Source of the DNA: Chloroflexota bacterium
GTDB lineage: Bacteria > Chloroflexota > Dehalococcoidia > Lucifugimonadales > JACQTT01
NCBI GenBank assembly: GCA_016210665.1
Contig: JACQTT010000013.1
Location: 1-17,681 of the forward strand
DNA length: 17,681 bases
Reading direction: 5' to 3'
Part shown: positions 1-17,441 of the stretch, one piece after another
How positions within the stretch are numbered: position 1 is the first letter of the stretch
Layout: each line of letters begins with the position of its first letter
Position numbers and translations under genes: made by a program
The notes under the pieces: model-generated
What the model saw: the letters and a program-made list of their open reading frames with translations, nothing else
Told to the model about the DNA's origin: nothing
The model's database searches: none

Positions 1-284
1 CCCAGGTCGAGGTCGGAACCGAATGTATAAATAACTATCAAATATGAAATGTAAATAGCTTCCCATCCCATCACGGATCCCACCAAGCCCTCACCGGAAT
101 CATCAAAAAAAGCGGGCAGAAAAAAGGACGATACGAATAGCACCACCGGGACTAGCGCAACTGCAAAATAGGCCAAGGCGCTTAACCTCCTCTCTTTAAG
201 CTGATTCGAACGTTGTCTAAGGCCAATCGCAATCGCTCCCAGAGCAGCGGCTACCAAGATGATGCCAAGAATAAGCATTAACAT
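1..284 (-). CDS. Polytopic membrane protein, 5' part only (runs off the window start). The N-terminal ~30 codons, RBS and promoter are duplicated from the flotillin gene. The remainder is paralogous to the 2572-3288 membrane protein.
   Basis: I reverse-complemented 1-300 by hand. ATG at 282-284 is preceded by GGAGAAGGGAACG (strong SD) and there is no stop through position 1. The translation is MLMLILGIILVAAALGAIAIGLRQRSNQLKERRLSALAYFAVALVPVVLFVSSFFLPAFFDDSGEGLVGSVMGWEAIYISYLIVIYTF... The first 22 aa are near-identical to the flotillin N-terminus (MLTLILGIILVAAALGAIAIGLGQ). From RRLSA onward it aligns with the 2572-3288 protein (RRRWAAGLSLPLLGLILASFFLPTISVCEGSG), sharing the SFFLP and SG motifs. 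It is not in the ORF track because it lacks an in-window stop. Confidence 0.5.
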   Translation of the reverse strand, partial: MLMLILGIILVAAALGAIAIGLRQRSNQLKERRLSALAYFAVALVPVVLFVSSFFLPAFFDDSGEGLVGSVMGWEAIYISYLIVIYTFGSDLDL

Positions 285-383
285 CGTTCCCTTCTCCTAG
301 CATGTTCGAGTCATCACTATTGTCATGGAAGAGCGCCCTTTCCAGCAGGTGCAAATGAGCTGTTTGTGTATGGTACCGGCTAC
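285..383. promoter_or_regulatory. Copy A of a triplicated intergenic regulatory module, upstream of the 1-284 membrane-protein gene.
   Basis: Positions 190-383 match 2055-2240 (copy B) at about 85-90% nucleotide identity, including the motif CAGGTGCAAATGAGCTG at 345-361. The motif lies 61 bp upstream of the ATG, the same spacing as in copy B. Confidence 0.6.
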
Positions 384-393
384 GAAGCAAGAT

Positions 394-425
394 GGCAAGG
401 CAGCCAGCTTACCGACCGCCTTGCC
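394..425 (-). terminator. Candidate hairpin terminator downstream of the flotillin gene.
   Basis: A perfect 8-bp inverted repeat GGCAAGGC (394-401) / GCCTTGCC (418-425) with a 16-nt loop lies 29 nt past the flotillin stop on the minus strand. It is followed by AUCUUGCUUC, which is only moderately U-rich. The loop is long, so the call is weak. Confidence 0.25.
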
Positions 426-453
426 ATACAAGAAACCGCCTCTACCTCTCCTC

Positions 454-2148
454 CTATTTGTCCTGACTAGAAAACAACGTTCCTTTTGCCAGGTTGCTAG
501 CTCCTCCGAGGATTGCCGCAAAGCCCTCCATTCCCGTAGAGCTTCCTTCGACCATGATGACGGGAACCTTCACGATGTTAGGGTTCTCGATGGCTGCCTC
601 AAGGGTCTTGATTAGCGCTTCAAGTTGTAACACCCTGTCCTGGCCAAGCACCTTAACCTGGGCGTCCTGTCCCCGTGCGATGGCAGTCAACTCGGCCTCG
701 CGGCCTTCACCGCGAAGCTGTGATGCCAGTTTGTTCTGTACCTCGATTTGCACACCTACCTGAGCAGCCACCAGTTGGTCCTGCTGGTCAGCAGTTGCCC
801 TGGCCTGTTCCGTCAGAACCCTCTGTTCTTGCGCCCGCTGCTCCCGTGCATAGGTCTTTTCTAGCTCCTCGGCCAGTTGCCTGCGAGCGAGGGTCACCAG
901 CAACTCTGGCGGGATGACAGGGTCGCCAAAGCGGACCTCCTTGACAGAGATTCCCGCCTTTCTTCCTTCCGGGATGATAGTCTGTTTCACGAGTTGCTCA
1001 AGTTCTGCCCGTTGGTCCTGAAGCTCAAGCACCTTTCTGCCCCTCTCCCCAATCACATTGCGGACCACGCTTCCCAAGGTCCGAGTCAAGATCCTTTGCT
1101 CCACTTCAGTCAAACCCCCGACTGCGGCAACAACAAAGGGCGCATCCTCAGGCGCTATCTGAACGATCAATCGGACCTCAATCGGGACCGTCCAGCCCTC
1201 GACTCGGACAGGAATTGCGCCTTCGACGGCCGTTGGTGGAACAGGAACATTTTGCTTGACCTCATCCTGAGTGATCCTACCTTCCTGATCCAGCTTCAAG
1301 TTAATAACTCGCCTCTCGTATCCACCTGAGTACTCCCACGCATAGACCCGAGTACTTATGTTAATCACCTCGTAAGCATTCGCGTTCAGATAATACCTCC
1401 CAGGTAACAGCGGCTCGTTCCATACTCCAATGCACCCTTTTGGTACCAGGGGAATCGCCAGAGTTTGCTCTTGAGGTTGTGGTACCGGTATGCAGTTGTC
1501 AGACGTCTGAACGTTCGACTTTACCACGCCCACACTACCAATCGCAATGTTGGTGACTGGCTTTACTACGACATCGAACAGGTAGCGATGTACGCGATAC
1601 TTCCCAGGAGGAAGAACTGACAGTTGGGGTCCTTTCTGTCCGCCGTTGTGTAGGAAATACTCCGCTTCAAGCATTTTCTCGAACTCTGCTTCAGGCCATT
1701 CATCTGCCAGGATCTGTCCCGGGCGGAGGGGGGCTCCGTCCCGGGCTAACAGCAACCCGTATGAGTCAACGGGGATCTCGACAACTGAAAACTTTTCCAC
1801 CTTGTACAGCACGTTGAGAAGGGGACTGAACTTAAATCCAGGTGATAATACTTCCGCTTGAGGTCCAGCCTGCCCCTTGAAGGCTATGATCTGCCCAGGA
1901 GGCATCGATAAGCCACCGTAGACGCGCTTCAAGTGTCCCATTTCATCGGCTCCAACGACCGTGAAAGACGTCCCCAGCAGGAGCCCCAACCCCACTAAGC
2001 CAAACAAGACGACACCAACTGAAACACCGTATAGCAGCCAGACCTGGATATCCTTATTTACAAGCCTATTCAAACGTTGTCCAAGGCCAATAGCAATCGC
2101 TCCCAGGGCAGCGGCAACCAAGATGATGCCAAGAATAAGCGTTAACAT
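454..2148 (-). CDS. Flotillin-family SPFH/band-7 membrane protein (YqiK/FloT-like).
   Basis: A 564-aa ORF with ATG at 2146-2148 preceded by AAGGAGGGAACG. It has two N-terminal hydrophobic helices. SPFH-like segments are present (PGFKFSPLLNVLYKVEKFSVVEIP; RLIVQIAPEDAPFVVAAVGGLTEVEQRILTRTLGSVVRNVIGER). The long Glu/Ala/Gln-rich coiled-coil tail (AEELEKTYAREQRAQEQRVLTEQARATADQQDQLVAAQVGVQIEV...) is typical of bacterial flotillins. Confidence 0.85.
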   Translation of the reverse strand: MLTLILGIILVAAALGAIAIGLGQRLNRLVNKDIQVWLLYGVSVGVVLFGLVGLGLLLGTSFTVVGADEMGHLKRVYGGLSMPPGQIIAFKGQAGPQAEVLSPGFKFSPLLNVLYKVEKFSVVEIPVDSYGLLLARDGAPLRPGQILADEWPEAEFEKMLEAEYFLHNGGQKGPQLSVLPPGKYRVHRYLFDVVVKPVTNIAIGSVGVVKSNVQTSDNCIPVPQPQEQTLAIPLVPKGCIGVWNEPLLPGRYYLNANAYEVINISTRVYAWEYSGGYERRVINLKLDQEGRITQDEVKQNVPVPPTAVEGAIPVRVEGWTVPIEVRLIVQIAPEDAPFVVAAVGGLTEVEQRILTRTLGSVVRNVIGERGRKVLELQDQRAELEQLVKQTIIPEGRKAGISVKEVRFGDPVIPPELLVTLARRQLAEELEKTYAREQRAQEQRVLTEQARATADQQDQLVAAQVGVQIEVQNKLASQLRGEGREAELTAIARGQDAQVKVLGQDRVLQLEALIKTLEAAIENPNIVKVPVIMVEGSSTGMEGFAAILGGASNLAKGTLFSSQDK

Positions 2149-2357
2149 CGTTCCCTCCTTCTAATATATTCGAGTCACCACTATTCTCATGGCAGAGAGC
2201 CCTTGCCAACAGGTGCAAATGAGCTGTTTGTGGGTGGTACACGCTACTGCTTTTTCGTGGTACATCTGAACCTGGTATCGCGGGCTGCCCTGCGATGTAC
2301 AATGGATGGCACAGAGGTCTCTTGTCTCCGAGTTATGCACCGCTGAGGCAATGGGCT
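2149..2357. promoter_or_regulatory. Copy B of the regulatory module. It is a divergent promoter region: the left half matches copy A and the right half matches copy C.
   Basis: 2055-2240 matches 190-383. 2200-2527 matches 3322-3652 at about 92% identity. The motif CAGGTGCAAATGAGCTG at 2210-2226 lies 62 bp upstream of the flotillin ATG. A -10-like TACAAT at 2298-2303 faces the plus strand. Confidence 0.6.
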
Positions 2358-2527
2358 ATGGAAAAGAGTTCAGCCCCCAATTACGCCGTGTTTGAGGACT
2401 ACCGCTCCAGCCAGGGCATCGCCGTGGTGGTTCGGTGGTTTATGCTGGCAACCTGGCTCACCCTCATCAACATCCGTACCCAGGAGTCTAACCTTCCCTA
2501 TCTCAACACTATGGGCACGGCCCTGTC
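2358..2527 (+). pseudogene. Truncated remnant (about 57 codons) of a paralogous DesK-type sensor kinase gene.
   Basis: Track ORF 2295-2609 gives MYNGWHRGLLSPSYAPLRQWAMEKSSAPNYAVFEDYRSSQGIAVVVRWFMLATWLTLINIRTQESNLPYLNTMG... This is co-linear with the N-terminus of the kinase at 3478, including the RBS and ATG. Homology stops abruptly at about 2527 and the ORF then reads into unrelated sequence that overlaps the 3' end of the minus-strand gene. Of 12 nucleotide differences from the intact gene, 8 are synonymous. Confidence 0.6.
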
Positions 2528-2571
2528 GGTGACATGCCTCAACCTGAATCAGAGAACTGCCTATGGATCCA

Positions 2572-3288
2572 TCAGTCCTTTCCTAACCAACTCGCGCAAG
2601 GCACGATGAACAGTAAGATTAGTACGGCTGCCCCAAACATGTCCCAACCGATCAAAAGGCCGCCTATACTCCCCACTCCAATTATCGTGAAGAGTACCCA
2701 TGACGCGGCTAGACACCCGTACGCCCCCAGGAAGTAGCTCCAACGGTGCCAGCCACCAACTGTGGCGATTCCTCGTACTAAGAGAAGGCAGGCCATGATT
2801 CCAGTTGTTAGCAGATAGGTGAGAACGAAACCCTCTCGGCCCCAATCGACTTTGTCAAGGTCCTTCAGGGGAACTCCAAGGGTCACCCAGCTGACCCAAA
2901 ACCATGTGCCGAGGGAGAGAACAAGTGCAGCCGAGGCGGCCCCTCCGAAAACGCGCCCAGGACGATGTCGTCGGACCAAGGCCCCTACCGTGGATAGTAG
3001 AAGAATCAGCGCGGCTAAATAAAGAGGATAGCCTTGCCAGTCCAAGTCGTAACCACGAAGTTCAGTAACTCCGCTCCCCTCACATACTGAGATAGTCGGC
3101 AGGAAAAAGCTTGCGAGGATGAGGCCCAGGAGGGGCAGAGACAGGCCTGCGGCCCAGCGTCGGCGGACCTCTGGCCCGCCTGACGGAATGTCCTCCTTGC
3201 CCTCTACTGATGTGGAGGCCCCAACTCCTGTCGTGGGTCCCGTTTCAGCCATCATTGACATCTCCTGGTTCATGTGAGCACCTCGCAT
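2572..3288 (-). CDS. Polytopic integral membrane protein with about 6 TM helices and unknown function. It is paralogous to the 1-284 gene.
   Basis: A 238-aa ORF, almost entirely hydrophobic helices (LPLLGLILASFFLP, YPLYLAALILLLSTVGALV, AASAALVLSLGTWFWVSWVTLGV, GFVLTYLLTTGIMACLLLV, CLAASWVLFTIIGVGSIGGLLIGW, AAVLILLFIVPCASWL). The real start is probably the internal Met at 3273 (GAGGTG-CTCAC-ATG) or a later one. This would put the shared motif at -58, matching copies A and B. Confidence 0.7.
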   Translation of the reverse strand: MRGAHMNQEMSMMAETGPTTGVGASTSVEGKEDIPSGGPEVRRRWAAGLSLPLLGLILASFFLPTISVCEGSGVTELRGYDLDWQGYPLYLAALILLLSTVGALVRRHRPGRVFGGAASAALVLSLGTWFWVSWVTLGVPLKDLDKVDWGREGFVLTYLLTTGIMACLLLVRGIATVGGWHRWSYFLGAYGCLAASWVLFTIIGVGSIGGLLIGWDMFGAAVLILLFIVPCASWLGKD

Positions 3289-3477
3289 AGTGGAACTGTG
3301 CTTATTGTCTGCGAGTCCAGACCCTTCTAACAGGTGCAGATGAGCTGATTATGACCGGTACGGGCTACTGCTTCTTCGTGGTACATCTGAACCTTGTGTA
3401 GGTCTGCCTGCGATGTATAATTGATGGCACAGAGAGGTCTCTTATCTCCGAGTTATGCACCGCTGAGGCAATGGACT
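3289..3477. promoter_or_regulatory. Copy C of the regulatory module, with a sigma70-like promoter for the kinase/regulator operon.
   Basis: Motif CAGGTGCAGATGAGCTG at 3331-3347. A -35-like TTGTGT (3394-3399), a 16-nt spacer and a TG-preceded TATAAT (3416-3421) predict a transcription start near 3428. The RBS GAGG (3464-3467) lies 10 nt before the ATG at 3478. Confidence 0.5.
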
Positions 3478-4722
3478 ATGGAAAAGAGTTCAGCCCCCAA
3501 CTACGCCGTCTTCGACGACTATCGCTCCAGCCAGGGCATAGCCGTGGTGGTCCGGTGGTTCATGCTGGCAACCTGGCTCACCCTCATCAACATCCGTTCC
3601 CAGGAGCCCAACCTTCCCTATCTCAACACGATGGGCGCGGCCCTGATCATACTCAACGGCTACGTCCATTGGAGGATTTGGAGGGGCAGGCCCATTACAT
3701 GGCCCTACGTCCTGGCCCTGAGCCTGATGGACCTCACCATTATCACGGCGGGCATCATGGTCACCAGCAGGTTCGGGAACACCTATTATATCTTTTACTA
3801 TCCGGCGCTTCTGGGCGTAGCCCTCATCTTCCGCCGCCGGGTCAGCTTTGCCATTGTCACCATTATCGCTGGGTTCTATGCCGGCATCAGCCTGACTATG
3901 AAGCCAGGATTAGACACATCGGTGCTCTTTGACGGCGACGAGAAGGAGCTCACCGTCAGGGTGGTATGCATGTTCGCCGTCGTGGTAGCTGCGAATCTCA
4001 TGACTCGGTTGGAGAGGCAGCGGCGAGCCGAGGCGGTGGAGGCGGAACGGATCCGCATGGAGGAGAACCTTCTGCTCCAGCGCAGAGCGGAGGAGGCAGA
4101 GCGGGAGGCACAGGAGGAGCGGATTCGCATCTCCCAGGAGATTCACGACGGGGCGGCCCAGTCGGCCTACATGCTCAGCCTTGGCCTTGAGACTTGCTGT
4201 CACATGGCCGGCCAAGAGGCCCCCCAGCTCCACGACAGGCTGAAGGCACTCCACGCAGAGTCCAAGCAGGCCCTGTTGGAGCTTCGCTATCCAATCAACC
4301 TCGGGCCCCTGTTCGAAGGCAGAGGCCTGACACAGATCCTGGCAGACCACCTGACGAATTTCAGGGCCATAACTTCTATCCCCACGCATTTCTCCATGAC
4401 CGGACAGGAGACGGAGTTGCCACTAGCCACCCAGCAGCGGCTGTTTGCGCTAGCCCACAATGCCCTGACCAATGCCTACAAGTATGCCCAGGCTACCGAG
4501 GTCAATGTGGAGCTGGTCTGCGATGACAAGACGCTAAAGCTTTCCATCAGCGATAACGGGGTGGGCATGGACACTACCGCACTGGCCGCCTCCTCCGGCC
4601 ACGGGATACGGAACATGCGCCGCACCGCAGAGGAGATGGGAGGGGCTCTGGATATAACCAGTGCTCCGGGGAAGGGTACAATAGTGAGCGTAGCCCTCTC
4701 TCTTTCGGGAGGTGCGCCGTGA
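3478..4722 (+). CDS. Membrane-embedded sensor histidine kinase of the HisKA_3 family (DesK/LiaS/NarX-type) with a HATPase_c domain.
   Basis: The N-terminal part has about 5-6 TM helices with no obvious extracytoplasmic domain. It has a coiled-coil linker, an H-box RISQEIHDGAAQS typical of HisKA_3, and C-terminal N/G boxes (LAHNALTNAYKYA ... ISDNGVGM ... GHGIRNMRRTAEEMGG). The track ORF begins at 3421 (TTG). I prefer 3478 because the predicted -10 places the transcription start downstream of the 3421/3424 start candidates. Confidence 0.85.
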   Translation: MEKSSAPNYAVFDDYRSSQGIAVVVRWFMLATWLTLINIRSQEPNLPYLNTMGAALIILNGYVHWRIWRGRPITWPYVLALSLMDLTIITAGIMVTSRFGNTYYIFYYPALLGVALIFRRRVSFAIVTIIAGFYAGISLTMKPGLDTSVLFDGDEKELTVRVVCMFAVVVAANLMTRLERQRRAEAVEAERIRMEENLLLQRRAEEAEREAQEERIRISQEIHDGAAQSAYMLSLGLETCCHMAGQEAPQLHDRLKALHAESKQALLELRYPINLGPLFEGRGLTQILADHLTNFRAITSIPTHFSMTGQETELPLATQQRLFALAHNALTNAYKYAQATEVNVELVCDDKTLKLSISDNGVGMDTTALAASSGHGIRNMRRTAEEMGGALDITSAPGKGTIVSVALSLSGGAP

Positions 4723-5384
4723 GCCCTCTGAGAGTCATGATTGTGGACGATCACCAGGTCGTGAGAGAGGGATTGCGAAAGGTCCTGGAAGTAGAGGAAA
4801 ACATCGAGGTAGTGGGGGAGGCGGGGGATGGGAGGCAAGCTGTGGACAAGGCACAGGAGCTCAAGCCGGACGTGATCCTCATGGACGTAATGATGCCTGG
4901 CATGAATGGTATAGATGCCTGCCAGGAGATCAAGGGTCTCTTACCCCGTACCGCCGTGGTGATGCTCACCGCCTCAGGGCTAGCGGAGTCCGTTACTGCT
5001 TCCCTAGTGGCGGGCGCTCAGGGCTACGTGCTGAAAGTCGTTGGGCGGGACGAGTTGGTCCGCGCCATCAGAGCCGTAGGGCGAGGCGAGTCTATCCTGG
5101 ACCCTTCCGTGACCAGGATAGTCACTGAAGGCTTCTCTCGCCTGGTGGGCCAGGAGAGGCAGCGAGAGGTGGAGCGACTTACCTCCCGAGAGAAGGAGGT
5201 GCTGCTCCTGGTGGCCCGGGGAGAAACCAACAGAGAGGTGGCCGAGCGGCTGGTCATCAGCGAGTTCACGGCAAGAAATACGGTGAGCAATATCCTGGGT
5301 AAGCTTGGGCTGAGGAATCGCTCTGAACTGGTGCGTTGGGCCTTGAACAACAGGGTGGTAATGGAGCCTGGTAACTACTCGTAA
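4719..5384 (+). CDS. NarL/FixJ-family response regulator (receiver domain plus LuxR-type HTH).
   Basis: GTG start at 4719 preceded by GGAGGTG, overlapping the kinase stop by 4 nt. It has an MIVDDHQVVREGL receiver with the conserved D (ILMDVMMPGMNG). The C-terminal LuxR HTH reads LTSREKEVLLLVARGETNREVAERLVISEFTARNTVSNILGKLGL. Confidence 0.9.
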   Translation: MSPLRVMIVDDHQVVREGLRKVLEVEENIEVVGEAGDGRQAVDKAQELKPDVILMDVMMPGMNGIDACQEIKGLLPRTAVVMLTASGLAESVTASLVAGAQGYVLKVVGRDELVRAIRAVGRGESILDPSVTRIVTEGFSRLVGQERQREVERLTSREKEVLLLVARGETNREVAERLVISEFTARNTVSNILGKLGLRNRSELVRWALNNRVVMEPGNYS

Positions 5385-10343: not shown

Positions 10344-11051
10344 ATGGTTGAACAGGAGATGTATCGCCGAGCGATGGTAGTGGTTGCCCACGCCGATGAC
10401 GCGGAGTTCGGGTGTTCAGGCACGGTGGCCCTTTGGGCGCGACAAGGAGCAGAGGTAATCTACGTCATATGCACGGACGGAAGCAAAGGAAGCGGCGATC
10501 CTGAAATGACCTCCTCCCGTTTGGTGGAGATACGACGCCAGGAGCAACTCGACGCTGCCAGGGTCCTGGGAGTAAAGGAGGTAGTATTTCTAGGCTACGA
10601 AGATGCCATACTTCAGCCCACCCTTGAGTTGCGGCGAGATATTTGCCGGCAGATTCGCCGATACAAGCCTCAGGTCCTGATCTGTATGAGCCCGGTAAGA
10701 GATCTGGAAAGCGCCAGCTACCTGGGTCACCCGGACCACTTCGCCTCAGCAGAAGCGGCCCTGTCGGCGGTGTTCCCCGCAGCCCGGGACCGATTGACCT
10801 TTCCTGAACTCATGGAGGAGGGTCTGGAACCCCATAAGGTAGAAGAGGTGCTGGTGATGAGCAGGACTAACCCTAACAAGTGGATTGATGTTACCGATAC
10901 CCTAGATATCGCCATGGAGGCCATCAAATGCCACCGCAGCCAAGTGAATCCCGAAGACGTCGGGAACTTTCTGCGAGGGTGGCGAGAGGAGATGGGAAAA
11001 GAGAGGGGCATGAAATACGCCGAAGCCTTCAGACACTTTCAACTGCGCTGA
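10344..11051 (+). CDS. PIG-L / LmbE-family zinc-dependent N-acetyl-glucosaminyl deacetylase (MshB/BshB-like).
   Basis: Motifs MVVVAHADDAEFG (the AHPDDE motif) and GHPDHFA (the HxDH motif). The track ORF starts at 10308, but GAGAGGA (10331-10337) precedes ATG 10344. Confidence 0.8.
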   Translation: MVEQEMYRRAMVVVAHADDAEFGCSGTVALWARQGAEVIYVICTDGSKGSGDPEMTSSRLVEIRRQEQLDAARVLGVKEVVFLGYEDAILQPTLELRRDICRQIRRYKPQVLICMSPVRDLESASYLGHPDHFASAEAALSAVFPAARDRLTFPELMEEGLEPHKVEEVLVMSRTNPNKWIDVTDTLDIAMEAIKCHRSQVNPEDVGNFLRGWREEMGKERGMKYAEAFRHFQLR

Positions 11052-11094
11052 AAAGACACCATGGACGGGACGGTGTAACAGACTCTGTAGGAGC

Positions 11095-12448: not shown

Positions 12449-13774
12449 CTACTGAGCAGGAGGCGGCAGCACCTTGCGCGCCTGGCGGATGACGCCTAGT
12501 AAAAGAAGGGCCACTATAACAGCGACCACGCCAAGGGCCGCAGGTAAGAGCCAGGGGAACCGCTCGCTGACGGGAGGCCTCTTCTCCACATAGTCGGGAT
12601 TGGTGTTCTGGGGACCCAGGGCAGCTTGCGCCAACTCCTCGGTCTCGAGGTAGGGAAAGACCCGCTCGATATCATAAGAAGGCCGCCGGGCTTCGAGATT
12701 ACCGTAGTAGAGCTTGTACAACTGCCCGGGGTCTGTCGTGTAGAGGAGGCTGCGACGATAGCTCCATGCATCTACACCTTCGATATGAAGAGGCGGGCTG
12801 TCCTCGTCGTGGATGACCAGGCGTAGATAGCGTAAGGTGGTCTCGGGATAGACGATGGCGAGGTTACCTCCAACAAACTTCGGGGTGTCGTAGGCGTAGA
12901 TGCCAGCCCTCGACTGGGCGGTGCTCCACTCCTTACGGTCAGCACTCTCCTCTATGGTGACCTCTCGATAGAAGTTGACCTCGGACACCCTAACCTGAAC
13001 GCGATGGCTAGGAAGCCCTGGGCTACCCGTGTCCATCTCCACGAGGGTGGCGCGGCGATCTCTGTCGTAGCTAGTGCTTACCATAGATACGGGCCAGGAC
13101 ACCTCTTGTGCTGGGGTAACCTTTATAAAGAAAGTGGTAGCGCCGAGTACGTCCAGGGGGCCTTCACCCTCGTCGGCGACCTTAACCCGCAGATAACGCG
13201 CCGTGCTGGCTGGATACCCTATCCTTGTGTTGCTGGCGCTAAAGTTTCGCTCCTTGACGGTGAAATCATAGATTTCCTGCTTGCCTACCTCAGCCCATGT
13301 ACCTCCATCGTTACTGGTTTCCACGGTGGCTGTACGGCGGAAGTTGATGGCGGGAGTCTGGAACTCGATCTCGTTGTGTAGGAGTCCATCGCGCCCCAGG
13401 TCGGCGATGAATGTGGTGTAGAGGTCAGGAACGTAACCCTTGTCCTGTAAGGTCACTGGGAAGGACGTAAACTGACGCTCGCCCCTACTGACCTGGAACT
13501 TGTACGGAACCTCCGTGCCAGCGGTGGAGATGATGCGAAGGTCAACCAGGCCGAGGGCCGAGCCAGCAAACACCTCGCGATCTGGGACGAGCTCCACAAG
13601 ACCCTTGCTAAGGAGGTTAGAAGGGGAAGCAATGGGCTTGAAGTACTGCCAGTCACGGAGTAAGAAGTCAGCCGCCACGCTGGAGGCGAGCAAGGCCGTC
13701 AGAACGACGGCAGCGGTGATGGATCTGGCAACTAGAGCGACCCTACTTCTCAACCAGGAACCCCCTGATGGCAC
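12449..13774 (-). CDS. DUF3999-like protein: N-terminal signal/anchor, a large beta-rich extracytoplasmic domain, and a C-terminal TM anchor.
   Basis: A 441-aa ORF with N-terminal hydrophobic segment ITAAVVLTALLASSVAA and C-terminal anchor FPWLLPAALGVVAVIVALLLLGVI followed by RQARK. The overall length and topology match my recollection of Pfam DUF3999. It overlaps the upstream DUF2339-like gene by 32 nt, so the two are probably translationally coupled. The family assignment is from memory and is not searchable here. Confidence 0.65.
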   Translation of the reverse strand: MPSGGSWLRSRVALVARSITAAVVLTALLASSVAADFLLRDWQYFKPIASPSNLLSKGLVELVPDREVFAGSALGLVDLRIISTAGTEVPYKFQVSRGERQFTSFPVTLQDKGYVPDLYTTFIADLGRDGLLHNEIEFQTPAINFRRTATVETSNDGGTWAEVGKQEIYDFTVKERNFSASNTRIGYPASTARYLRVKVADEGEGPLDVLGATTFFIKVTPAQEVSWPVSMVSTSYDRDRRATLVEMDTGSPGLPSHRVQVRVSEVNFYREVTIEESADRKEWSTAQSRAGIYAYDTPKFVGGNLAIVYPETTLRYLRLVIHDEDSPPLHIEGVDAWSYRRSLLYTTDPGQLYKLYYGNLEARRPSYDIERVFPYLETEELAQAALGPQNTNPDYVEKRPPVSERFPWLLPAALGVVAVIVALLLLGVIRQARKVLPPPAQ

Positions 13775-15704
13775 GACTGTAGCGCTGGTAGAGATAAGCG
13801 CTAGCTAGCAGGATGACCCCCAGACCCATGAAGGCACCTATGCGGTAGACACGCTCCAGGGCAAATATGTCGTAAACAAACACCTTGGCGATGGGGATAA
13901 GGAGAAGACCCAGGGCGGCCAGACGAATCGGGCGTGAGCGCTTGACTATGCCAATAACCAGGGCAATGGCGGCGTAGCCGGCCCATATAGCGGTGAGGGA
14001 GAGATTCTGAGCGTTTCTGAGGTTGTCGTCGGTACCCCTAAACCTCTCAAAGCGGGGCAGCTCTGTAAACCTGCTGTCGAAGTAGCTGAGCGCCTCCGCG
14101 CTGAGGATCCAGAGGGAGAAGACGTTGGCAGCCAATATAAAAATAGGATACACGAACCAGGCGTTCCTCTCCCACTCGTCCAGTGACCCTCTTTCACGCC
14201 AGAGAAGGCGTGCGGCGATGTATATGGAGGCGATGCTTACCAGAAACGCTAGAAAGCGCTCGTTGAGCACCGGGCGGAAAGTAGCCAAATCTACATAATC
14301 AATCGGCGTGTCGAAAAAGAGCAGTCGCACGGCTACGAGAACGAAGGCGGCGTAACTAAAGATGCGGGTTCGAGGCATCTGCAACGTAAACGATAGCCAC
14401 ATAAGCACTGTACCCTCGGCTGCCCAGGCAATAGTCGTCCAGGCCCTATCGCCTAACTGCACTGGGATGGCGATGGTAAGAAACACCAGGGCGATGCCCA
14501 GGGCCAGGAAGCTGAGCCTCACATTTTCGGCGCTACGTTTAAGGGCGACATAGGCGAGGCCGCCGTAGAACAGGGCCAGGAGGATAGAGAAGCCCCCCAT
14601 CCATAGTCTGAAGTCATCCCACAAAAGCCCATAGCTTATCCCAAAGTAGGCACCCGCGTTGATAATCATGAGAGCCTGGTCGAAAGCCTGGGGAGCACGA
14701 CGCCAGACGATGTGATAAAGGGTCGTGGCTCCTACAAAGATGAGGAATATCAGGGTCAGGCCACCCTGGGATGTCAGCAGGCTCGCTTCGTTGCCAAACT
14801 CGCTATACCATCCCCCGAAAGCCACCAGAGTCGCCAGGAGCGAAAGAAGGGTGAACCAGCGCCAGTTGCGGAAGGTGGACAACGCTAGGACACCCAGGTC
14901 AACTACCATTATGTAAACCAGGAGTTGTATGCTCTCGCCGGCCTGGGCAGCCCCACGCGTCTCTGGTGCAAAGCCACCAAGGATAAAGGGTGCGCCGAAG
15001 GCCCCAAGGATACCGATTATCGCCAACGCCGTGGAATCGTGGCGAAGGGCCAGGGCCGCCGAGGTCACACTGATCAGTAGCAGGAAACCGACGGCGGGAT
15101 TCAGGGTAATCAGGTTAAAGATGGCAAAGGCGGCGAAGATAGCCAGGTATAGGAGGGCAATGCCGCCTCCCATCAGGGCCTGGGCGTAGGCTGGGTATCG
15201 TTTTTGCCAGTACTCACCGGCTCCTAGCATTGCCAGCCCAGCTATGATTCCCAGGACTACACGCCCTGTCGGGCCTATCCAGTTGTTGTCGAAGGCTAGC
15301 TTGAGGAAGAAGGCAACGCCAATAATAATAGCAAGAACCCCAATCCTGGCTAGCCAGTTGCCGCCAAAGATCTGCTCCCAGTCCCACTCCTTCATTCTCT
15401 TGAAAATGTCTCCATCAGGTGGTGCTGGAGTTTCTTCGGCTAGACCAGGGACCTCTCCGGCGGTAACCGAGGCGACCTCTAGCGCAGGTGTCGGCTGGAG
15501 AGGCGGTGCGGCGACTCCTCGTACGCGTTCAAGGGCAGCCAGACGCTCGTTCATAGCCACAAGGTTACCCCCTAAGCGGCGCACCTCGGCCTGGAGCGCT
15601 TCTATCTGCTGAGCCGAGGTTTCAGGTGCTGCAAGAGCGGTGCCACAGGAGATGCAGAACCGACTGTTCGGGGTGTTCTCGTGCTGGCAGTTGGGGCAGC
15701 GCAT
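13743..15704 (-). CDS. DUF2339-like large polytopic membrane protein with an N-terminal zinc ribbon and coiled coil.
   Basis: A 653-aa ORF with ATG at 15702-15704 preceded by GGAGACAGGA. It has CPNCQHEN...CISCG (zinc ribbon) and QQIEALQAEVRRLGGNLVAMNERLAALER (coiled coil). About 18-20 predicted TM helices then begin at FGGNWLARIGVLAIIIGVAFFLKLAF, which is typical of DUF2339 proteins as I recall them. Confidence 0.65.
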   Translation of the reverse strand: MRCPNCQHENTPNSRFCISCGTALAAPETSAQQIEALQAEVRRLGGNLVAMNERLAALERVRGVAAPPLQPTPALEVASVTAGEVPGLAEETPAPPDGDIFKRMKEWDWEQIFGGNWLARIGVLAIIIGVAFFLKLAFDNNWIGPTGRVVLGIIAGLAMLGAGEYWQKRYPAYAQALMGGGIALLYLAIFAAFAIFNLITLNPAVGFLLLISVTSAALALRHDSTALAIIGILGAFGAPFILGGFAPETRGAAQAGESIQLLVYIMVVDLGVLALSTFRNWRWFTLLSLLATLVAFGGWYSEFGNEASLLTSQGGLTLIFLIFVGATTLYHIVWRRAPQAFDQALMIINAGAYFGISYGLLWDDFRLWMGGFSILLALFYGGLAYVALKRSAENVRLSFLALGIALVFLTIAIPVQLGDRAWTTIAWAAEGTVLMWLSFTLQMPRTRIFSYAAFVLVAVRLLFFDTPIDYVDLATFRPVLNERFLAFLVSIASIYIAARLLWRERGSLDEWERNAWFVYPIFILAANVFSLWILSAEALSYFDSRFTELPRFERFRGTDDNLRNAQNLSLTAIWAGYAAIALVIGIVKRSRPIRLAALGLLLIPIAKVFVYDIFALERVYRIGAFMGLGVILLASAYLYQRYSRAIRGFLVEK

Positions 15705-15880: not shown

Positions 15881-16603
15881 ATGGTGGGCGGCATGAACGC
15901 CCGCCTCGCACTCTACATAATTGGGACAATTCTTATCGTGCTAAGCGTCATCGAGAATGCGCTGCCGGAGGCTATCGGAGGCATACTTGCCGGGCTGCTT
16001 ACCATCTTCACAGTTGCTGTCCTATCGCATTGGCGCCTGCATCGCCCTTTCAATTTTAGATTCTCCCTTGACCCGTATCGTTTTAGTCCGCAACTAGTCA
16101 GGGAGCGCAAACATGCAACGCATTGGGAGATCGCAGTCAATCAGGAAGCGGAATTACTACTGAGAATCATGCCCAGGAAGGGAACTCACTTCACTCGCGT
16201 AGGCGTTCGCTGTGTGGAACGGTACTTCACATGGAGATGGGACATTCTGCGCCCGCGAGTTTGGGCATGGCGGAATGCTCCGACATCAGCAATTGAGATT
16301 AGAGCGGTGCGCGACATTGACTCCGAAAGCATCAATTCGGCGACCCACCAATTAGGTACGCAGTTCAGGACTTGGCCTGATGGCGTGGGTGGAATGTGGG
16401 GAGAATATCACCCACCTTACCATCGGACTATGGAGGACTCGTTATGGCTCTGCGTCAAGTTGGTCGCATACAGACCATGGACGGGGCACATATCCTTCCA
16501 GGGGCATATTGATGAGGACCATCGTGCCTATAGCCGTCGAGCGCTTTGGGCTATTGAGCAACCAGACGTTCATATGGCAAGTTATCACTGCCTAGAAGCC
16601 TAG
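15881..16603 (+). CDS. Hypothetical passenger protein inside the IS. It has an N-terminal 2-TM hairpin and a W/R/H-rich soluble domain of unknown function.
   Basis: A 240-aa ORF lying entirely between the inverted repeats. It has TM segments LALYIIGTILIVLSVI and IGGILAGLLTIFTVAVL and no recognisable family motif. Its 3' end overlaps the convergent transposase gene by 53 nt. The true start may be the second Met at 15893. Confidence 0.4.
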   Translation: MVGGMNARLALYIIGTILIVLSVIENALPEAIGGILAGLLTIFTVAVLSHWRLHRPFNFRFSLDPYRFSPQLVRERKHATHWEIAVNQEAELLLRIMPRKGTHFTRVGVRCVERYFTWRWDILRPRVWAWRNAPTSAIEIRAVRDIDSESINSATHQLGTQFRTWPDGVGGMWGEYHPPYHRTMEDSLWLCVKLVAYRPWTGHISFQGHIDEDHRAYSRRALWAIEQPDVHMASYHCLEA

Positions 16604-17441
16604 TGAGTGTATCCCGAAACAGATACGGGTTCTTGCGATTGTTGAACCGCCATTCTAATTCATCCAGGTAAGCATCAAGGTGTTTGGCAGAGAGCTTATG
16701 ATAAGAGCCAGTGATAGACCGCTTGAAGAGACTCCATACCCCTTCTACAGTGTTGGTGTGAACATCGCCCCTTACCCATTCCTCTGCCCGGTGATTTACC
16801 GTCTCATGGCTCGTATCCTCATCGGAAATCCCTCTGTATGCAGGCCATTCGTCCGTGATGATTCTCCGCACCCTGGGGTCTGTGCTATTGTGGATAAAAT
16901 CATGGAGTGTCTGCCTGTCATTGCCGTCAACGACCTGAAGAACAACATCCCCACCACGTTGCATCGCTCCTGCCACGATAGTCTTGTTACCTTTATAGCC
17001 ATGCCCCTTCCCTCGAACCTTCCCACCTATATAGGTCTCATCCACCTCGATAGTGCCAGAGAGAGTGTTTGCTTCGGCCATAGCAGCCCTTATCCTGTGG
17101 CAGAGATACCATGCTGTCTTGTAGGAGACTCCCAGGGTTCTCTTGACCTGATTGGCCGAGATACCCTTTTTGGCCTCGACCATCAGCAAGACAGCCATGA
17201 ACCACTTGCGGAGCGGGAGTTTGGTATCCTGGAAGATAGTCCCAGCAAGAGCGGTGAAGCCATAGCCACAGCCGTAGCAGTCATAGCGGTAGGTCTTGGA
17301 GTCGTAGCCATGTTTAGTACACTTGCATCGTGGACACTCTGCGCCATTTGGCCAGCGAAGCCGAGCAAGAGTATCATGGCAAATATCCTCCGAGTGGAAC
17401 ATCTCGGTGAGTTGGAGTAGGTCAATCTTTTTGGTAGGCAT
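16551..17441 (-). CDS. IS1595-family (ISXO2-like) DDE transposase with an N-terminal zinc-ribbon domain.
   Basis: The N-terminus reads LARLRWPNGAECPRCKCTKHGYDSKTYRYDCYGCGYGF (transposase zinc ribbon). The hallmark IS1595 motif TIEVDETYIGGK is present, with D, D and E residues spaced as in DDE_Tnp_IS1595. A strong AGGAGA SD sits 5 nt before the ATG. Confidence 0.9.
   Translation of the reverse strand: MPTKKIDLLQLTEMFHSEDICHDTLARLRWPNGAECPRCKCTKHGYDSKTYRYDCYGCGYGFTALAGTIFQDTKLPLRKWFMAVLLMVEAKKGISANQVKRTLGVSYKTAWYLCHRIRAAMAEANTLSGTIEVDETYIGGKVRGKGHGYKGNKTIVAGAMQRGGDVVLQVVDGNDRQTLHDFIHNSTDPRVRRIITDEWPAYRGISDEDTSHETVNHRAEEWVRGDVHTNTVEGVWSLFKRSITGSYHKLSAKHLDAYLDELEWRFNNRKNPYLFRDTLTRLLGSDNLPYERLVAQ

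Follow-up and report, generated by a model that had tools for sequence, protein, structure and literature searches.

What is a second, incomplete copy of the start of a sensor histidine kinase gene doing beside a flotillin-like gene, upstream of the intact kinase? The window analyzed here (17,681 bp) is one complete contig of a Chloroflexi metagenome-assembled genome (MAG) at NCBI with locus tags HY666_; it contains an intact two-component system, consisting of the sensor kinase and a NarL/LuxR-type response regulator, together with a fragment that repeats the 5' end of the kinase gene. An earlier note on this DNA had taken the fragment for the decayed remnant of an old second two-component system. 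Our results suggest instead that the fragment is probably the scar of a lineage-specific segmental duplication followed by rearrangement. This view is supported by the repeat structure and junctions in the window, by the gene order in the closest relatives, and by the finding that fragment and intact gene are closer to one another than either is to the kinase genes of two outgroup lineages.

Structure of the kinase-like fragment

Comparison by blastn aligned positions 2200-2525 with 3322-3645 over 328 nucleotides (nt) at 88.7% identity (E=2e-117), and a repeat search gave 93% for 2310-2525 versus 3430-3645; the repeat is real, and its similarity is far above the chance level. Identity is 92.3% over the coding stretch (2358-2525 versus 3478-3645, 168 nt) and 87.9% over the kinase promoter and 5' untranslated region (UTR; 2258-2357 versus 3385-3477); it is far lower beside the minus-strand genes and falls to background past 2525. 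As the earlier note stated, this truncated paralogous copy has kept the promoter, 5' UTR, ribosome-binding site (RBS) and start codon of the kinase: a -10 box is present (TACAAT, versus TATAAT for the intact kinase), followed by the 5' UTR, a GAGG Shine-Dalgarno sequence, and an ATG at 2358. Over 56 colinear codons, 13 nt differences fall in 12 codons, eight of them synonymous and four with conservative replacements (D13E, S41T, P44S, and A54T), so that our recount agrees with the numbers given before. The limits of the copy required correction. Codon 57, which had been included in a match thought to end at about 2527, already lies at the breakpoint, and the homologous codons end at 2525. The repeat does not start at 2295; it begins about 95 nt further upstream and takes in a 31-nt core (2210-2240, matching 3331-3361), discussed below. 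The homologous start codon is the ATG at 2358, not the one at 2295, which falls within the -10 region.

The homologous open reading frame (ORF) runs from this ATG to a stop at 2609, encodes 83 amino acids (aa), and is annotated in GenBank as hypothetical protein HY666_00815 (MBI4298287.1). Its 3' end overlaps by 38 nt the 3' end of a convergent gene for a 238-aa membrane protein (here called mem238), and no terminator-like site was predicted between the two. The peptide had been described as a micro-protein with two transmembrane (TM) segments; by Kyte-Doolittle hydropathy it has a single hydrophobic segment, at residues 21-39, and the weak second helix (TM2) of the kinase is interrupted in the fragment. 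No match to Pfam or NCBIfam was found for the fragment, which is without HisKA_3 (the DHp domain with the phospho-accepting histidine) and HATPase_c.

Gene order in relatives, promoter copies, and junctions

The closest relatives are five contigs (L052-L056) from NCBI, JGI, and ENA samples, which carry one kinase protein 81% identical to that of the window. Their gene order shows a single two-component system: a 155-aa gene, a 245-aa gene, and flotillin are read in one direction, in that order from the far end, and kinase and regulator are read divergently from flotillin. At the aa level, the window proteins are 84% (flotillin), 81% (kinase), 86% (regulator), and 62% (mem238 versus the 245-aa protein) identical to their counterparts; blastn aligned mem238 (2572-3273) with L052 1217-1920, and residues 25-92 of memA, the membrane-protein gene at the left end of the window, are 40% identical to residues 3-68 of the 155-aa protein (blastp). 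Positions 340-2516 of the window are colinear by blastn with L052 2022-4211, an interval that runs from the 3' flank of flotillin across the gene itself and the intergenic region into the start of the kinase; therefore, the place of the ancestral kinase, next to flotillin, is the one taken by the fragment. Whereas the counterpart of mem238 is located downstream of flotillin in the relatives (L052-L055), in the window mem238 separates the fragment from the intact kinase, and the material that is new at this place consists of mem238, its promoter, and a second kinase upstream region. This order contradicts the proposal that flotillin has taken the place of a lost kinase/regulator pair: in the relatives, flotillin is directly divergent from the single kinase, and the newcomer is mem238. 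Nor was the intact second pair that the proposal would lead one to look for at this position in relatives found in L052-L056, which have one pair each. No relative closer than this 81% clade was found in genome, metagenome (searched with the kinase N terminus), or protein collections, and in a protein search of 5.8 billion sequences nothing was more than 81% identical to the kinase except the kinase itself. In five distant relatives with 64-70% identity, flotillin and kinase are not adjacent, and neither are mem238 and kinase.

Three copies of a promoter module, not two, are present in the window: copy A upstream of memA, copy B between flotillin and the fragment, and copy C between mem238 and the intact kinase. 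The 31-nt core (CAGGTGCANATGANCNGNNTNTGNNNGGTAC) occurs exactly three times (at 346, 2210, and 3331), with zero occurrences expected by chance, and every core lies upstream of a minus-strand membrane gene and beside sigma-70-like -35/-10 elements. Read on the minus strand, its consensus is GTACC-N3-CA-N-AA-N-C-N-G-N-TCAT-N-TGCACCTG. Each full-length contig of the closest relative has two cores, in L052 at 2028-2058 and 3887-3917, upstream of the 245-aa gene and of flotillin; the core was absent from the more distant relatives examined and is restricted to this clade. It is a candidate operator of the NarL-type regulator. The flotillin and 245-aa-gene promoters of the relatives are about 84% alike, which implies that direct repeats competent for recombination existed beforehand.

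Copy A is a hybrid. It matches copy B at 87.6% (198-383 versus 2062-2247, blastn), the repeat pairing 198-392 with 2062-2256, and the N-terminal 29 codons of memA are 88% identical at the nt level to the 5' end of flotillin. Its core, 5' UTR, and 27-29 codons are of the flotillin type, while 340-453 is orthologous to the intergenic region between flotillin and the 245-aa gene in the relatives; in L052, window positions 229-376 align to the flotillin promoter and 340-453 to the region downstream of flotillin. The junction from copy A to memA (J1) is an in-frame fusion near the join of AAT and CAGCTT, at about 200-212, and the homology to the relatives' 155-aa gene starts from codon 3-5 or so of the latter. 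It is thus probably a flotillin-type promoter that drives memA. The approximately 27 flotillin-derived codons, with the sequence before them, add an N-terminal TM helix, an RBS, and a promoter to memA.

The second junction (J2) is where the fragment ends. Past the breakpoint, the sequence can be aligned weakly with the 3' flank of the 245-aa gene in the relatives, clearly from 2557 on and perhaps already from 2526; the stretch 2526-2571 matches neither the kinase nor the regulator nor the sequences flanking these two. In the rest of the window, tblastn searches for remnants of kinase residues 57-414 or of the regulator returned only chance matches (E>3). The stretches 2520-2575, 151-205, and 3274-3325 had been considered as filler, having only chance matches to the window and the relatives; this was dropped when closer alignment suggested diverged native flanks.

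The junctions also bear on the possibility of an assembly artefact, in which sequences from related strains or species were joined into one contig and the repeats do not occur together in one genome. We consider this very improbable. The contig is indeed a short-read MAG contig that was seen once, but the copies differ by 7-12%, the longest exact matches between them are only 36 and 24 nt, and the junctions join nonhomologous DNA, so that there is no shared k-mer path. Moreover, the flanking genes are intact and single-copy, one of the junctions is an in-frame fusion, and three separate wrong joins would be required.

A path from the gene order of the relatives to that of the window can be proposed. 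The ancestral order would have been memA, mem245 (the 245-aa gene), and flotillin on one strand, followed divergently by kinase and regulator, with paralogous core-bearing promoters upstream of flotillin and mem245. A tandem duplication of about 3 kb, extending from just downstream of mem245 to kinase codon 56, would have formed J2 (between 2525 and 2526) and left a kinase 5' end, promoter included, that was incomplete from the outset. Recombination between promoter cores would then have deleted the second copy of flotillin, placing mem238 directly before the intact kinase and creating copy C. A second core-mediated exchange, together with a microhomology deletion, would have removed the first copy of mem245 and given rise to copy A and the flotillin::memA fusion. 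The net result would be single-copy genes, an intact kinase and regulator, one promoter module for each of the three membrane genes, and two gene-start scars.

Age of the duplication and selection on the fragment

L067 (a Logan contig, SRR22388005) served as a second, more distant outgroup besides L052. Over the 168 nt, the fragment (B) and the intact gene (C) differ at 13 positions, versus 25 for C-L052, 32 for B-L052, 37 for C-L067, 38 for B-L067, and 29 for L052-L067; the four-point sum for ((B,C),(L052,L067)) is 42, versus 63 and 69 for the other two arrangements. Because the B-C distance is the smallest, fragment and intact gene are sisters, and their duplication is younger than the split from both outgroups. 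By these distances, the duplication is specific to this lineage. An older duplication of the whole block, as put forward in the earlier note, is at odds with a B-C distance of 13 against 25 to 38 to the outgroups and with the lack of any other trace of kinase residues 57-414 and the regulator. With L052 as the sole outgroup, nine changes are assigned to the fragment branch (six synonymous, three not) and two to the intact branch (both synonymous), and two more are ambiguous (p=0.035 by Tajima's test). The relation is reversed in the 100 nt of noncoding sequence next to the coding part, with three changes on the fragment branch versus up to seven; Fisher's test of coding versus noncoding sequence gives p=0.03 with the 9:2 count and p=0.15 with the 6:2 count obtained from both outgroups. 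The coding part of the fragment thus appears to be evolving relatively fast, which is what constraint on the intact gene alone would lead one to expect.

The sister relationship leaves room for a younger version of the second-system idea, in which a complete second kinase and regulator were duplicated, worked under purifying selection, and were then lost through a deletion from codon 57 to the mem238 3' flank. We regard this as unlikely, although some observations suit it. Whole-kinase duplication does occur in this family: L057 (5565-8787) has two full-length tandem kinases (415 and 438 aa, sharing 56% and 70% identity with the kinase of the window) followed by one regulator, a kinase-kinase-regulator arrangement of paralogues. 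Formal calculation on the aligned segment gave a low pairwise ratio of nonsynonymous to synonymous rates (dN/dS) of 0.18 (Nei-Gojobori; Fisher p=5e-4), the replacements are conservative and are seen elsewhere in the family, and neither a frameshift nor a stop interrupts the codons, stops being expected in only 28-39% of simulations. The conclusion of purifying selection that had been drawn from the excess of synonymous changes does not follow, however: the path between the two copies is partly that of the intact gene, and the excess disappears under a spectrum-matched null. Eight of the nine changes on the fragment branch are at C (six C-to-T, two C-to-G), and 33 of the 62 C's are at codon position 3; under a null matched to this spectrum, a mean of 4.05 of nine changes is synonymous, and P(>=6)=0.15. 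Neutrality of the fragment branch is thus not rejected, owing to the C-to-T bias and the C-rich third positions. The likelihood of six out of nine is 0.251 at an omega of 0.2 versus 0.116 under the spectrum-matched neutral model, which fits a constrained copy twice as well but amounts to a twofold preference only. A transient second system would also require one event more than a duplication ending inside the kinase; neither residues 57-414 nor a second regulator left a residue in the window; the closest relatives have one system, with nothing above 81% identity among the 5.8 billion sequences; and the synteny speaks against flotillin having replaced a pair. With 56 codons to go by, some past constraint or a transient full second copy is conceivable. 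The case serves as a warning: when a gene and a truncated copy of it show a low pairwise dN/dS, this is no proof that the copy was once functional.

A number of points weigh against a fragment that arose truncated in a recent rearrangement. The gene order comes from one outgroup lineage only, its ancestral state being assumed, and the path set out above needs three to four events and is not unique, since these could have occurred in another order. For the promoter of copy C the source is ambiguous: its identity to each of the two L052 promoters is 80%, for which reason its assignment to the flotillin type or the 245-aa-gene type was abandoned, and only the copy A hybrid is firm. When both outgroups are used, the secure changes number six on the fragment branch (four synonymous, two nonsynonymous) versus two, and the rate test gives p=0.29, so that we do not rest on it by itself. 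Finally, there are weak hints of some constraint on the fragment. Under a uniform null, six synonymous versus three nonsynonymous changes on the fragment branch would have p~0.005-0.006; there is no indel or stop in the 168 nt, though there are indels in the adjacent 100 nt; of the 33 C's at codon position 3, 7 are mutated, versus 1 of the 29 at positions 1-2 (p=0.057); and all three securely or nearly securely polarized replacements are residues found in other family members.

Possible function, neighboring genes, and comparison with known systems

It is conceivable that the fragment has been retained for a function, either as an 83-aa single-pass peptide that binds or titrates the sensor bundle of the kinase or as an antisense transcript into the convergent mem238; we consider this improbable. 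It retains an intact -10 box, Shine-Dalgarno sequence, and ATG in front of an open, annotated reading frame. In an alignment of 33 homologues, conservation within the multi-TM sensor domain is highest over the N-terminal 40 residues, which would suit a peptide role, as would the weak signs of constraint on the fragment, while the 38-nt overlap with the mem238 3' end and the lack of a predicted terminator between the two would suit an antisense role. Against a peptide role, the -10 box has changed from TATAAT to TACAAT, nothing in the tail beyond codon 56 is related to the kinase, TM2 has been lost, the coding part appears to be evolving faster than the intact gene, and no conserved stand-alone family of homologues was found. 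The 90% cluster of HY666_00815 is a singleton, a word-index search gave two matches only (the fragment itself and L067), and an exhaustive HMMER search gave 48 hits, of which the short ones are genes cut off at contig ends or pieces that are frameshifted or rearranged, with varied breakpoints and unrelated tails; a conserved micro-protein family was rejected on these results. The fragment appears to be nonfunctional now. If the peptide were active, it would be of interest as a regulator that arose out of the very kinase on which it acts. In such a scheme, to which we give little credence, a probably autoregulated promoter would express a self-derived modulator whose N-terminal cytoplasmic motif and TM1 compete in the helix bundle and provide feedback, or else a transcript acting antisense on mem238, and memA would have newly entered the regulon.

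On the L067 contig (1-1525), a related kinase gene has been truncated independently, at codon 105; the DNA beyond is unrelated and contains a 153-aa ORF and a tRNA-Leu gene (1032-1121, minus strand). The -10 box of this kinase gene is likewise TACAAT. A mobile element may have inserted there, or the unitig may be chimeric.

The features of the left part of the window are listed in Table 1. In the intact kinase, Pfam places HisKA_3 at residues 214-270. The N-terminal 40 residues of the kinase family (P-x-YAVF-x-DYRSSQRIAVVVRWF plus TM1; window 3478-3600) are without a Pfam model. No Pfam domain was found in memA or mem238, Rfam gave no match over the whole window, and no NCBIfam equivalog scored above its own cutoff for the kinase/regulator pair. 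A hairpin orthologous to that in the flotillin 3' flank is present in L052 between flotillin and the 245-aa gene.

Table 1. Coordinates of the genes, promoter copies, and junction around the kinase-like fragment
Feature	Position	Strand	Description
memA	3..284	-	5' part of membrane-protein gene, cut by contig end; from translation; orthologue of relatives' 155-aa gene; first ~27 codons flotillin-derived, in-frame chimera
Copy A	198..392		Flotillin-type codons 198-284, 5' UTR and promoter 285-345, 31-nt core 346-376
Flotillin 3' flank	393..453	-	Terminator-like hairpin 413-394, from terminator scan
Flotillin-like SPFH/Band_7 gene	454..2148	-	564 aa; Pfam PF01145; ancestral position
Copy B, flotillin promoter side	2149..2257	-	Core 2210-2240; sigma-70-like TTGGCA-18-AATAGT (2209-2180)
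Copy B, duplicate kinase promoter and 5' UTR	2258..2357	+	TACAAT 2298-2303, GAGG 2345-2348; three-way alignments
Truncated kinase ORF	2358..2609	+	83 aa; codons 1-56 kinase-homologous, 27-codon tail unrelated
Junction J2	2526..2571		Probable mem238 3' flank; weak alignment to L052 245-aa-gene flank
mem238	2572..3288	-	238-aa membrane-protein gene; orthologue of relatives' 245-aa gene
Copy C	3289..3477		mem238 promoter with core 3331-3361, and kinase promoter/5' UTR (TATAAT 3416-3421)
Sensor histidine kinase, intact (HY666_00825)	3478..4722	+	414 aa; multi-TM N-terminal domain, HisKA_3, HATPase_c
NarL/LuxR-type response regulator	4719..5384	+	221 aa; Pfam Response_reg and GerE

Elsewhere in the window, a pair of membrane-protein genes with DUF3999 and DUF2339/zinc-ribbon domains is found at 12449-15704 (minus strand). 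In a 64%-identical relative (L069, 804-3944), a DUF2339 gene lies directly upstream of the kinase, which hints at a recurrent link between DUF2339 and this kinase family. An IS1595-family transposase gene (DDE_Tnp_IS1595 and a zinc ribbon; 16551-17441, minus strand) lies near the right contig end. A 31-nt direct repeat with 71% identity (11039-11069 and 16455-16485) is probably a chance match.

LiaFSR, VraSR, and DesKR are membrane- or envelope-stress systems that combine a HisKA_3 kinase with a NarL/LuxR-type regulator. The intact pair of the window is like them in having HisKA_3 and HATPase_c in the kinase, REC and GerE in the regulator, and membrane-gene neighbors including an SPFH/flotillin gene, and a promoter motif is shared before the neighboring genes in the window. 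Flotillin-type proteins are recurrent partners of membrane- and envelope-stress systems (PMC11237479). Related kinases are encoded near Band_7, DUF2339, and RDD genes. On the other hand, the pair is without an NCBIfam equivalog, its sensor is without a Pfam model, and the fragment is without the defining domains of these systems. The intact pair is a generic HisKA_3/NarL-type system whose setting resembles that of systems responding to membrane or envelope stress.

Small membrane proteins that modulate sensor kinases include MgrB and SafA, which act on PhoQ, and MzrA, which acts on EnvZ; they are conserved, dedicated proteins unrelated in sequence to the kinase. The fragment is similar to them as a short ORF with one TM segment located beside a kinase and possibly under the same regulator, but it differs in being a unique truncated copy of the kinase with a random tail, for which no conserved family was found. 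The tandem kinases of L057 differ from the arrangement in the window in that both are full length, whereas in the window only 56 codons of the kinase were duplicated.

The closest likeness is to partial-gene pseudogenes at resolved duplications. As in these, the fragment is a colinear 5' part of a neighboring gene in direct repeat with an abrupt breakpoint, and it is likewise sister to the intact copy, devoid of catalytic domains, and apparently evolving faster in its coding part. It differs from them in that a bidirectional promoter region was carried along, so that the fragment keeps apparently usable expression signals, and in that the same rearrangement gave promoter copies to two other genes and produced an in-frame chimera. 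None of the features that define a kinase or a second two-component system is present in the fragment, which has the structure of a duplication remnant. Partial gene copies at rearrangement junctions are common, and the fragment matters little as it stands; the locus, however, illustrates in nature that a small regulon can be reshuffled when paralogous promoters recombine, a new gene here receiving a promoter and an in-frame chimera being formed.

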